From Myxococcota bacterium (lineage in GTDB: Bacteria > Myxococcota_A > UBA9160 > UBA6930), in the NCBI GenBank assembly GCA_965223705.1, contig OZ245015.1, positions 160,001-224,000 on the forward strand: DNA of 64,000 nt, written 5' to 3'. Under the pieces are notes generated by a model. That model saw only the letters and a program-made list of their open reading frames with translations, was not told where the DNA came from and made no database searches. The position numbers and the translations under genes were made by a program. Positions 5,733-13,962 of the stretch are shown one piece after another; the first letter of the stretch is position 1, and the number at the start of each line of letters is the position of its first letter.

Positions 5733-5880
5733 CGCCCGAACATCCGTCTAACGGAGTTGCGGCTCAGTGGCCCGCCGACCTAATGGCGAGATTCCGCCGA
5801 CACCGCTGGTAAGGGACCAAGACTAACGAACTAGAACCGAGCTAAGGCGGATCCACTGCAGCCGCTCTTATGATGCGATC

Positions 5881-6078
5881 CGTGATGAAATGAAGCGGCC
5901 GATGAGCACAAGCCACGTGCCCACCGGCCTTCATAGGGAGCGGTAGGCCGAAAGCCAAGAGGTCCCTTGCGAGACCGTTAACAAGCTCGGGTCACCGTTC
6001 CCGTTGCCGCAGCGAAGCTCGAACGATCGCTTGGGCCGCCCGGAGGCGAGCCCGTATTTGAGAGCCCGAGTTCGTTGT
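5881..6078 (+). ncRNA. Putative bridge RNA, copy 1 (ends approximate)
   Basis: 5' hairpin plus two stem-internal-loop-stem modules carrying target- and donor-matching sequence. Confidence 0.75.
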
Positions 6079-6093
6079 ACCGGGAAGTTTATC

Positions 6094-7009
6094 ATGGCCC
6101 CCTGCATTGGAATCGATGTCTCGAAGCACACCCTCGACTGGAGCTCCGGCTCCAAAGGTCGCATCCAGAGCACCCGCAACGTCCCCCGATCAATCGCAGC
6201 CCTCGTTCGCCGACTCTCTGCACTCCGTCCAAAACGAATCGTGGTGGAGTCCACCGGCGGCTACGAACGGCAGCTCGTTCTCAAGCTCGCTGAGGCGAAG
6301 CTACCCGTCGTTGTGGTGAACCCGCGCCGAGTGCGGAGTTTTGGAGAGGCGGTGGGATGTCTCGCCAAGACCGATCCCATCGACGCTCGCCTCTTGTCCC
6401 AGTTCGGCGAGAAGGTAGAACCGCCGCTTCGTCCGATCGTCGAGGGTAGAGAGCGTCTCCTGGCAGACCTTGTCGCGCGTCGCCGGCAGTTGGTCTCCAT
6501 GGTCGTCGCCGAGAAGAACCGACGCGAGTGTGCACCCGCCGCGGTTCGCCGATCGATCACCGCCGTGCTGAAGATGCCAACTACGGTCCATCGACGGGCA
6601 GATGGAAAAGATCCTCGACGAAGACGCAGAACGAGCCGAGCTGTCGGGGCTCCTGCAAAGCGTCCCCGGTGTAGGACCGGGTGTCGCACGCACGCTGCTC
6701 ATCGACCTACCCGAGTTGGGTCACCTGGGGCGTCGAGAGATCGCGTCTCTCGTCGGGGTCGCTCCCTTCGCACGAGATAGCGGAATGTTACGGGGGTCAC
6801 GACGAATCCGCGGAGGTCGTGCCTCGGTACGCACTGCGTTGTATCTCGCGGCGATGACCGCTTCCCGCTTCAACCCGACTCTTCGAGGTGTCTACGAAAG
6901 ACTTCGCGCATCGGGGAAGCCGCCGAAGCTCGCCTTCGTCGCTATCGCTCGAAAACTCCTCGTCATCCTCAACGCCATCGCTCGCGACCGCGTCGCCTGG
7001 CAGCCCTAA
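6094..7009 (+). pseudogene. Frameshifted IS110 recombinase
   Basis: AAGATG[CTCGAAGG]CCAACT deletion splits the ORF in two. Confidence 0.9.
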
Positions 7010-7035
7010 GCGTTGACTTCCAACACGATCGCTTG

Positions 7036-7572
7036 TTAGGTGGCAGGTCCGCTTTGCGAGAACGCACAGCCAAAGCGCTCCGCGTTGGCCTCCGAGAAGA
7101 ACACGGTGACCGCGTCGTCTGATACGAGTGTGGCCTCGTCGGAATACTCTCCGAGTGCCAAGAAAACAGGCTCGTGCCCGACGAGACTGAGTCGGATTCC
7201 GCAGGGGTACCAATGATCCGAGCGCTCGCTTGGGTACCAGCGAAGGGCGGTTGAGGCGATGTGTTTGCCAATGATGTCCGGCCACGGAGCCGTGCCCGAG
7301 ACCGGCCACCGCGCGGTCTCCGGGCGCAGCTCCGATGAGAGGTCGCTGGGCAGGACTTTGAGACCAGTGTCTGAAGGAACGTCCCAGATAACGGAGACGA
7401 CAGCGCCGCTTCCGAGGTGGAGCTCGACTCCGTAGTCGACGGAATGTCTATCGGAGCAGACGAACTCTGGCTTGCGGCTTTCGTACGCAATCTCTCGGTA
7501 GGTGACGTCCCGAATCGAGTCGCCGCGCGTCGACTCAAGAAGCTCGAGTGCTGATCTGGCCGGCTCCTTCAC
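7036..7572 (-). CDS. Hypothetical cassette protein
   Basis: GGAG RBS + GTG at 7572; stop in R'' box. Confidence 0.7.
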   Translation of the reverse strand: MKEPARSALELLESTRGDSIRDVTYREIAYESRKPEFVCSDRHSVDYGVELHLGSGAVVSVIWDVPSDTGLKVLPSDLSSELRPETARWPVSGTAPWPDIIGKHIASTALRWYPSERSDHWYPCGIRLSLVGHEPVFLALGEYSDEATLVSDDAVTVFFSEANAERFGCAFSQSGPAT

Positions 7573-7583
7573 GGTCTCCTGCC

Positions 7584-7713
7584 GCCTAACGGAGTTGCGG
7601 CTCAGTGGGCCCGCCGACCTAATGGCGAGATTCCGCCGATGCCGCTGGTAAGGGCACAAGACTAACGAACTAGGACTGAGCTAAGGCGGGTCCACTGCAG
7701 CCGCTGGTTAGAC
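7584..7713 (-). repeat. attC site
   Basis: GCCTAAC...GCTGGTTAGAC; identical to 14434-14563. Confidence 0.95.
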
Positions 7714-7720
7714 GGCGCCA

Positions 7721-11537: not shown

Positions 11538-11666
11538 GCCTAACGGAGTTGCGGCTCAGTGGTCCCGCCGATCTGAAGGCGAGATTCCGCCGGTACGCTG
11601 GTTAGGCCACAACACTAACGAACTAGGACCGCGCTAAGGCGGGTCCACTGCAGCCGCTTGTTGGGC
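11538..11666 (-). repeat. attC site
   Basis: GCCTAAC...GCTTGTTGGGC. Confidence 0.95.
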
Positions 11667-11671
11667 CGCAC

Positions 11672-11962
11672 CTAGCTCAACGGTGGCAGCAACTGACTCG
11701 CCCTGAACACGGTGACTACCTCAAGCCGCTCTTCAGTAGAAACGCGGTACACAAGTCGGAAGGGCCTGACGATGATTTCTCGGAGGTCGGGGTCGCCTAC
11801 TTCCGGAACGACTCGACCAACCCGCGGGAAGTCGCGTGCGCGTTCAGCTGCTGCGATGAGACGCTGGACCACAAGCGATGCCCAGCGGGGAGAGTCTTCG
11901 GAGATGCGTGCATGTATCGTCTCAAGGTCTCGGAGCGACCGTGGCGACCATATGGTTCTCAC
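11672..11962 (-). CDS. RelE/ParE-family toxin
   Basis: IWSP....DL..I...I..DSP, FP..GRVVPE, LREII..PFRLVYR. Confidence 0.9.
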   Translation of the reverse strand: MRTIWSPRSLRDLETIHARISEDSPRWASLVVQRLIAAAERARDFPRVGRVVPEVGDPDLREIIVRPFRLVYRVSTEERLEVVTVFRASQLLPPLS

Positions 11963-12141
11963 GCGCTAAAGCGCCGTTTGATCTCTTCGTGGGGGATGCC
12001 TTCGCCTGAATCGAGTTCAGCAAGGCCTTCCTCTACGCGGGCTAGAAACACGAGACGCTCAATCGCATCGTCGATGGTGGCGTCCGCGGGAAGATCTTGC
12101 AGCGCGTCGAGAATGCGTTGCTTTGAACTGGACTCGGCCAT
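11959..12141 (-). CDS. Antitoxin partner
   Basis: LP.DAT.DD..ERL.FL.RVEEGL....G..IPHEE; overlaps toxin start. Confidence 0.85.
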   Translation of the reverse strand: MAESSSKQRILDALQDLPADATIDDAIERLVFLARVEEGLAELDSGEGIPHEEIKRRFSA

Positions 12142-12314
12142 CGCTCAAAGGTAGCAGACCGCATTTGCTCGATTGTCGGCCCAACGGAGATGCGGCTCAG
12201 CGGTCCCGCCACACTTAATGGCAAGATTCCGCCGGGCCGCTGGCTGAGCCCAAAACCTAACGAACTAGAAAAGCGCTGTGGCGGGTCCGCTGTAGCCGCT
12301 CTTATGATGCGATC

Positions 12315-12512
12315 CGTGATGAAATGAAGCGGCCGATGAGCACAAGCCACGTGCCCACCGGCCTTCATAGGGAGCGGTAGGCCGAAAGCCAAGAGGTCCC
12401 TTGCGAGACCGTTAACAAGCTCGGGTCACCGTTCCCGTTGCCGCAGCGAAGCTCGAACGATCGCTTGGGCCGCCCGGAGGCGAGCCCGTATTTGAGAGCC
12501 CGAGTTCGTTGT
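12315..12512 (+). ncRNA. Putative bridge RNA, copy 3 (ends approximate)
   Basis: Same sequence as copy 2. Confidence 0.8.
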
Positions 12513-12527
12513 ACCGGGAAGTTTATC

Positions 12528-13451
12528 ATGGCCCCCTGCATTGGAATCGATGTCTCGAAGCACACCCTCGACTGGAGCTCCGGCTCCAAAGGTCGCATCC
12601 AGAGCACCCGCAACGTCCCCCGATCAATCGCAGCCCTCGTTCGCCGACTCTCTGCACTCCGTCCAAAACGAATCGTGGTGGAGTCCACCGGCGGCTACGA
12701 ACGGCAGCTCGTTCTCAAGCTCGCTGAGGCGAAGCTACCCGTCGTTGTGGTGAACCCGCGCCGAGTGCGGAGTTTTGGAGAGGCGGTGGGATGTCTCGCC
12801 AAGACCGATCCCATCGACGCTCGCCTCTTGTCCCAGTTCGGCGAGAAGGTAGAACCGCCGCTTCGTCCGATCGTCGAGGGTAGAGAGCGTCTCCTGGCAG
12901 ACCTTGTCGCGCGTCGCCGGCAGTTGGTCTCCATGGTCGTCGCCGAGAAGAACCGACGCGAGTGTGCACCCGCCGCGGTTCGCCGATCGATCACCGCCGT
13001 GCTGAAGATGCTCGAAGGCCAACTACGGTCCATCGACGGGCAGATGGAAAAGATCCTCGACGAAGACGCAGAACGAGCCGAGCTGTCGGGGCTCCTGCAA
13101 AGCGTCCCCGGTGTAGGACCGGGTGTCGCACGCACGCTGCTCATCGACCTACCCGAGTTGGGTCACCTGGGGCGTCGAGAGATCGCGTCTCTCGTCGGGG
13201 TCGCTCCCTTCGCACGAGATAGCGGAATGTTACGGGGGTCACGACGAATCCGCGGAGGTCGTGCCTCGGTACGCACTGCGTTGTATCTCGCGGCGATGAC
13301 CGCTTCCCGCTTCAACCCGACTCTTCGAGGTGTCTACGAAAGACTTCGCGCATCGGGGAAGCCGCCGAAGCTCGCCTTCGTCGCTATCGCTCGAAAACTC
13401 CTCGTCATCCTCAACGCCATCGCTCGCGACCGCGTCGCCTGGCAGCCCTAA
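12528..13451 (+). CDS. IS110-family DEDD recombinase/transposase
   Basis: Identical translation to 10061-10984. Confidence 0.97.
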
Positions 13452-13962
13452 GCGTTGACTTCCAACACGATCGCTTGTTAGACAGCAGCCTCCCCTTACT
13501 TAAGGGCAACCTACGGCGAGGACCAGAAGTAAAGACCTTGAGGACGGTGTAAAGAACGTCGGCGCCTACAACCGCATACTCTCGATGACCGGCAGACCCG
13601 TTGGCGTTCGCCAGGGCACCGCCTACCCGGCGAGCTTCTTCTAGGGAGAAAGGACACTCTTTGAAAGGAAGGTTAGGTAGTGGAGCCGAGGACGGCTCGA
13701 AACCACGAGACTGAAGGGCGCGAGAGACAGCCTTAGAGGCCACCTCTGGAAACACGGACTTCGAACAACGCGCGTTCGAATCTAGTTTGTGGGCCTCGAT
13801 GATGGGCCCTGACATCTTTGGGAGAACGTCTGGCACCCAGCCTCGGTCGAACAAGCTGTCTTCTCGGGCTGCCGAATACGTTGGGTATGTATTGACTTGA
13901 AACTCGAGCGGCTCGCACGCCAGGCCAAAGAAGAAAACCAACGCAGGTAGAACGCGTACCAA
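13411..13962 (-). CDS. Putative lipoprotein (cassette gene; frame runs through R'' into the IS end)
   Basis: Hydrophobic leader with GLAC lipobox-like motif; 3' end uncertain. Confidence 0.55.

Follow-up and report, generated by a model that had tools for sequence, protein, structure and literature searches.

We analysed a 64,000-nt window of a Myxococcota bacterium genome (assembly GCA_965223705.1, contig OZ245015.1, positions 160,001 to 224,000 of the forward strand; positions below are those of the window) and found an insertion sequence (IS) that occupies one fixed nucleotide within the attC sites of an integron. Its sequence makes it very probable that this is an autonomous element of the IS110 group, in the IS492/IS621 branch, and that attC is the natural target for which its bridge RNA is programmed. 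Junctions, guides, guide matches and guide-target covariation across homologs were observed. Sequence comparison delimited three copies:

5867..7033, plus strand: IS copy 1, 1167 nt, recombinase frame broken, with an 8-nt deletion near 6576
9834..11008, plus strand: IS copy 2, 1175 nt, intact
12301..13475, plus strand: IS copy 3, 1175 nt, identical to copy 2 letter for letter

All three copies point the same way and share the junctions AGCCGCT / element / TGTTAG, with CGCT common to both ends. A CT core is common to target and donor, and there is no target duplication beyond it. No fourth full copy was detected elsewhere in the 4.56-Mb genome by blastn and tblastn. The copies lie in a chromosomal integron, in which the integrase gene lies next to a series of attC hairpins that have R and L boxes, with cassettes mostly on the minus strand; no attC sites were found beyond this array in the rest of the genome. 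The relevant features are:

4339..15653, minus strand: cassette array with 14 attC of one family (11 empty, 3 occupied)
5746..5866, minus strand: host attC 1, L''-to-R' part; R'' box at 7035-7041
9712..9833, minus strand: host attC 2, L''-to-R' part; R'' box at 11010-11016
12179..12300, minus strand: host attC 3, second subtype, L''-to-R' part; R'' box at 13477-13483
15527..15653, minus strand: the only empty attC with the full guide-matched word, closing the cassette nearest the integrase
16282..17265, plus strand: integron integrase, divergent from the array (TIGR02249, 449 bits against a cut-off of 265)

Read on the cassette strand, each host attC is split within the 5 nt that separate R'' from L'', a single base away from the R'' box, and the element runs antisense to the cassettes. 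A preliminary description of this DNA had placed three same-orientation copies at one attC nucleotide, in two attC subtypes with CGCT at both junctions, and we verified its coordinates, junctions and subtypes. It had also stated that removing the element restores a normal attC. In silico removal yielded attC of 129-130 nt, and in minimum-energy DNA folds the rebuilt sites of copies 1 and 2 have both R and L boxes paired; for copy 3 the statement held in part, as the full-length fold paired the L arms and left the R boxes open.

The copies are identical but for one deletion and the array contains a duplicated cassette, as might be expected if a single insertion had been multiplied by cassette duplication or misassembly. 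We consider this highly improbable: the right flanks share just 6-7 nt and belong to three different cassettes, the left flanks represent two attC subtypes, and homologs in other genomes are found at the same position. Contigs from two runs of one sample, which is probably the source sample of the assembly, carry the element as one unbroken 1159-nt piece without the copy-1 deletion, so this deletion is possibly an assembly error, within the limits of read contigs, which drop rare variants and forms. The contigs of two runs also revealed a fourth right junction that is not in the assembly and again continues TGTTAG (left flank unseen). Across three runs there were zero variant letters inside the element, and contig depth on the element was 4-7 times that of its flanks, a ratio that is not a copy number.

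Once the copies are removed, the genome contains CTTGTTA at 28 places, five of them in attC, and all three insertions fall among those five; on these sequence counts, chance as the cause of the insertion position is excluded. The longer word AGCC-N-CTTGTTA, which covers what the guides do match, occurs four times in the rebuilt genome, always in attC, and three of these are occupied. Occupancy is thus 3/4 for attC with this word versus 0/10 for other attC (P 0.011, in a test framed post hoc), and the nine attC that read CTGGTTA or CTTGTTG are all empty.

The element's non-coding ends are 227 nt on the left and 24 nt on the right. The left end folds into a 5' stem-loop followed by two stem-loops with internal loops (z -3.3), in which we identified candidate guides for both target and donor (positions in copy 2):

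9836..9841, plus strand: -10 box TATGAT of the promoter formed at the circle junction
9859..9899, plus strand: predicted 5' stem-loop of the bridge RNA
9903..9969, plus strand: predicted target-binding loop
9918..9926, plus strand: left target guide AAAGCCAAG, matching the target at positions 3-6 only
9946..9952, plus strand: right target guide TAACAAG, complement of CTTGTTA (core, spacer base and GTTA of the R'' box)
9976..10045, plus strand: predicted donor-binding loop
9990..9998, plus strand: left donor guide ACGATCGCT, the same sequence as the final 9 nt of the right end
10026..10031, plus strand: right donor guide TGAGAG, complement of the core and first left-end bases with one G-T wobble
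10988..10993, plus strand: -35 box TTGACT in the right end

All seven positions of CTTGTTA are matched by the right target guide. Along the RNA come first the two target guides, left then right, and next the two donor guides, again left then right; the bottom-strand guide precedes the top-strand guide. Judged by sequence, joining of the two ends creates a sigma-70 promoter (TTGACT-17-TATGAT), and a circle promoter matched our search pattern in 7 of 16 loci of the clade described below. No Rfam family matched at E 0.1.

From these features we infer a cycle of RNA expression, binding, circle formation and catalysis like that of IS621. The ends would join at the CT core to form a circle, and the promoter created at the circle junction would drive the left-end bridge RNA, whose donor loop would bind the circle junction while its target loop binds attC. 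The recombinase, carrying DEDD and serine active-site residues, would then insert the element, in antisense to the cassettes and without duplication, between the CT core and the base that precedes the GTT of R''. The address would be linear sequence. Reading would be strict at the conserved R'' box, the task of the right guide, and loose at the intervening variable spacer, while the L'' box would fall to the 5' half of the left guide. The integrase may also be affected. Insertion parts R'' from L'' by 1.17 kb, and attC biology implies that integrase recombination at that attC should be blocked and that precise excision would restore the site.

To compare guides and targets across relatives, we parsed 209 loci, 175 of them with a readable right junction. 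The two large locus scans (at least 80 loci each) yielded mostly 45-52% identical relatives, so the clade around this element is under-sampled; 120 proteins at 71-100% were also listed, without DNA context. In a quick tree of 70 dereplicated proteins, with Shimodaira-Hasegawa-like approximate likelihood ratio (SH-aLRT) values as the sole support measure and stand-ins for ISKpn4, ISPa21, ISPst6, ISEc21, IS621 and IS492, the element groups with homologs of 50-76% identity in one clade of 20 rows (SH-aLRT 97). The clade thus has at least 20 members, and the element has recently spread. Among clade rows with a readable right junction, 17 of 18 end CT-N-GTT, at the same attC nucleotide. The exception, locus L185, is retargeted, and two further loci lack a readable right flank (L003, whose right end is unrecognisable, and L104). 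Adding eight partial or broken genes by hand gave 24/25, in a grouping made after the junctions were seen. This junction is absent from all 150 more distant loci, many of which come from the same genomes; these mostly have targets resembling repetitive extragenic palindromes (REP), matched by their own guides. The attC targeting claimed in the preliminary description therefore extends to the clade, most of whose junctions are at attC and not outside it.

Within the clade, guide and target change together. At L185 both guide and flank read CTGGTAC; L186 and L212 have right guides reading CTGGTTA that accompany CTGGTTA junctions; and one genome (G014) holds a left half with a CTGGTTA guide (L005) and a separate right half with a CTGGTTA junction (L204). 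The covariation includes the T/G base before GTT. In permutation tests, left guides gave 96 matches versus 75.4 when shuffled (17 distinct pairs, p 0.0002) and right guides 39 versus 32.9 (nine pairs, p 0.016), with p values that overstate the case because registers were the best of three per locus and kin are non-independent. At position 7 of the left guide, opposite the variable spacer, 9/17 clade pairs match, versus 88/89 pairs of other relatives. Clade hosts are mainly of the host's own order, together with metagenomes and one Burkholderiales bin, and an integron integrase was found in eight of ten host genomes checked, the other two being 77% and 88% complete. Matches at E 1e-30, not all of them in the clade, occurred in 20 of 192 other genomes. 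No relatives at 60% identity or more with E 1e-30 were found on plasmids, and no viral contig matched the target-loop pattern.

Two clade loci merit separate description. At L104 (1-245), a clade member of 59% identity with its right flank missing lies in what by eye is a serine resolvase-like gene, and both of its target guides have changed, a natural retargeting. At L182 (5391-8803, also in G014), one attC has apparently been invaded by three different IS110-like elements, at the R' end, in the L region and in the R''-L'' spacer; the middle element has inverted repeats and no blastp match to the recombinase studied here.

Besides the overstated p values, several observations weigh against an element that is guided to attC by its present RNA. 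The left target guide, the same in all element copies, mismatches positions 7-9, core included, and is second-worst of the 17 clade pairs. In IS621 the left guide pairs as far as the core and across it, which is not the case here. ISPpu10 allowed no mismatch at the left-guide base beside the core (10.64898/2026.03.19.712850), and IS621 prefers perfect guide matches (PMC11208160). Given these pairing rules and the core-side mismatch, the present bridge RNA may be impaired. Covariation in the RNA stems is weak, with double changes in 3 of 53 pairs (eight close homologs). In a full-attC test of 14 homologs, five showed long hairpins with R boxes paired (L004, L105, L106, L215 and L216); the other nine comprised two with both arms by eye and no R pairing (L002 and L187), four that are degenerate and three with too little flank. 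Finally, the sample contigs, from which rare forms drop out, contained neither a circle junction nor an emptied site.

The poor left guide would also be accounted for if it had been better matched at insertion and had later decayed, the change being spread by gene conversion through copies that now transpose poorly. In accord with this, the guide is poorer than in close homologs, core-proximal pairing is strict in ISPpu10 (10.64898/2026.03.19.712850), the copies lie within 8 kb, a spacing that favours conversion, and copies 1 and 2 have in common a private attC variant adjoining the left junction. We nevertheless think decay unlikely. The assembly shows three distinct right junctions and the sample contigs add a fourth, there are no variant letters inside the element, and relaxed left guides are common in the clade, all of which argue against it. 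Ten of 17 clade pairs match at six or seven of left-guide positions 3-9, and the unpaired core-side left guide is a departure seen in this copy and is not a trait of the branch. In vitro, IS621 can insert with a match on one side only (10.64898/2026.08.31.748434), so a poor left guide could still work.

An alternative to a linear address is that the recombinase recognises the folded single-stranded attC hairpin; the left guide would then pair with the opposite arm, or the hairpin would act as a second gate. The bottom strands of attC do fold, a target stem-loop raises ISPpu10 integration about twofold (10.64898/2026.03.19.712850), and the loosely read positions border the unpaired spacer. Against this, the left guides fit the linear target better in eight of nine loci and tie in the ninth (50 versus 39 matches), linear sequence alone singles out four genomic sites, and the R' arms are degenerate at four homolog sites. 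We therefore reject pairing of the left guide with its hairpin partner, and we regard hairpin recognition as a whole as improbable; a helper role for the hairpin is possible.

We next compared the element, read as an attC-programmed member of the IS110 group, with known systems. Two recombinase genes are intact:

10061..10984, plus strand: IS110 recombinase of copy 2, 307 amino acids (Pfam PF01548 and PF02371; NF033542 above cut-off)
12528..13451, plus strand: recombinase open reading frame of copy 3

In an alignment to IS621 and ISCro4, residues D8, E52, D94, D97 and S232 correspond to those that are catalytic in IS621, and the protein contains KTDPID and DSG motifs and one of the form GGRxxVRxALY. 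The long upstream and short downstream non-coding ends and the lack of sub-terminal inverted repeats (best match between the 45-nt ends 8/10 or 8/12) place it in the IS110 group. With IS621 and ISCro4 it shares a DEDD and serine recombinase, a CT core, a circle-junction promoter and an upstream bridge RNA with the target loop before the donor loop; it differs in targeting attC instead of REP, in its distant protein, and in its natural 7-nt right guide and left guide unpaired beside the core (PMC11208160, PMC11208158). The IS110-group layout, CT core and bridge RNA proposed in the preliminary description are thus supported by the 227- and 24-nt ends and the guide loops; the guide loops themselves and the poorly matched left guide are additions of this work. 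Its term "IS621-like" fits the layout and the motifs and is otherwise loose: IS621 is far in sequence (E 2e-33; ISCro4, E 2e-37), a 323-amino-acid IS621 relative is 31% identical, and the nearest named proteins are those of ISMex17 and ISMno7 (44%) and ISEc32 (40%). ISMex17, ISMno7, ISEc32 and a Klebsiella plasmid element (L223-L225 and L232; 40-44% identical) have the same bridge RNA layout and differ in having non-attC targets where these are readable. Many unnamed relatives target REP-like palindromes.

Elements of the IS1111-attC group (ISKpn4, ISPst6, ISPa21, ISPa25) insert at the same end of attC in the same antisense orientation (PMC3001079), which raises the question of whether our element is one of them. 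The IS1111 family has a downstream RNA, sub-terminal inverted repeats and the top-strand guide before the bottom-strand guide (PMC11187229); here, the main non-coding region is upstream and the downstream one is only 24 nt, inverted repeats are lacking, the guide order is reversed, and the protein has 307 amino acids. Moreover, blastp gave no match to IS5075 or IS4321 at E 1e-3, IS4321 and IS5075 are far away in the tree, and ISMex17, the 44% relative, is 19.5-20.2% identical to ISPst6, ISKpn4 and ISPa21. Membership is scarcely credible on this evidence and we reject it on proxies, since ISKpn4, ISPst6 and ISPa21 were compared through stand-ins and are not in the tree. In the same proxy comparison, the earlier claim that the element is distinct from IS1111-attC stood: its protein did not fall inside that clade. 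By eye, the non-coding region of ISKpn4 holds a stretch complementary to TTGTTA and so seems to read the same word. Group IIC-attC introns are likewise monophyletic invaders of the attC bottom strand, antisense to cassettes, and differ in being splicing retroelements without DNA recombinase or bridge RNA (PMC3001079).

A second group of elements bears on the question of origin. Seven loci (L234-L240) on Vibrio, Salinivibrio and Pseudoalteromonas replicons hold ISSde13/IS492/ISPtu2-like elements (the likeness to ISSde13 was judged by eye), and all six readable right junctions have the same right guide and insertion point (core-T-GTTA). Left flanks are attC-like by eye in three loci, one of which folded as a clear hairpin. 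The 7-bp IS492 target published by Higgins in 2009 is reportedly this same right target word. These elements resemble ours in belonging to the IS110 group, in their upstream RNA, in inserting one base before GTT and in a loosely matched left guide; they differ in identity (37-39%), donor guides and hosts. The available sections of a Shewanella survey place ISSde13 in integron regions and report no IS inside attC (PMC9229058), and target lists in the Durrant supplement, as far as available, include unlabelled targets with this junction (PMC11208160). At L235, the element and a three-cassette unit are tandemly repeated. The unlabelled supplement targets look like what we take to be Vibrio cassette repeats.

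Targeting of attC may already have been present in the ancestor of a broader IS110-group branch, to which the IS492/ISSde13-like elements also belong, with REP-targeting relatives as later retargetings. We hold this only tentatively; it is compatible with an attC-programmed bridge RNA in our element and bears on novelty. In its favour, the right guide word, the flanking loop sequence and the position are the same in 6/6 readable junctions of the second group, and a joint clade was not rejected (approximately unbiased test, p-AU 0.3). On the other side, identity is just 37-39%, the groups were unjoined in both quick trees that hold the two (IS492 itself being absent from the tree), and guides are often retargeted, so that convergence on the most conserved attC word would be easy. 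The "independent lineage" of the preliminary description could not be upheld, since these elements use the same guide and position and a single origin was not rejected.

In our full-text literature search, in which some key papers were not covered, attC targeting was described only for IS1111-type elements and group IIC introns, and a query for "bridge RNA" with "attC" returned one paper, with attC merely in its reference list. "Undescribed", the other term of the preliminary description, is thus right for IS110-group attC targeting within the literature searched. The mechanism and the target class are each known, and their pairing in the IS110 group is apparently undescribed. Our data widen attC targeting beyond the IS1111 family to include the IS110 group. 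At the sequence level they also show how a guide RNA copes with a site conserved only at two short boxes, by strict reading of R'', partial reading of L'' and loose reading of the spacer. The element offers a natural test of mismatch rules in compact (307-amino-acid) bridge recombinases, and opens a neglected question to testing: does a cassette become frozen by IS insertion and free again on precise excision? As attC sites are split by such elements, attC finders would miss them, and they may be under-counted in integron surveys. More speculatively, and with rather less confidence than doubt, we propose that the R'' box is a common address for this clade, the IS492/ISSde13 branch and IS1111-attC, so that the long-known IS492 target would be an attC motif, and that the element still inserts precisely despite its unpaired core-side left guide, as a reversible RNA-guided lock on cassette shuffling.

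The array itself has further features. A whole cassette occurs twice (7584-8126 and 14434-14976), and the two copies agree in every letter over at least 300 nt, which points to recent shuffling. Degenerate attC-like pieces at 1825-1876 and 2895 lie left of the intact array, which probably once reached further left. Each occupied attC adjoins a toxin-antitoxin or similar cassette: ParE and an addiction-module partner (5158-5752), DUF4160/DUF2442 (11009-11543) and ParE (11667-12185). Such neighbours occur at 5 of the 14 attC, and this post hoc association is possibly due to chance.

Two short segments resemble parts of the element. A decayed relic at 3212-3330, which is probably an older insertion of a relative, combines an attC-like piece, the element's 5' stem-loop with compensatory changes and a recombinase gene start (88% over 57 nt), with both guide loops missing. 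At 15673-15705, a right-end-like stretch is followed by 23 nt that match the donor loop exactly; the segment lies 30 nt away from the R'' box in the attC of the first cassette. The arrangement resembles a right end joined to a DNA copy of the left donor guide, as might arise from self-recombination.

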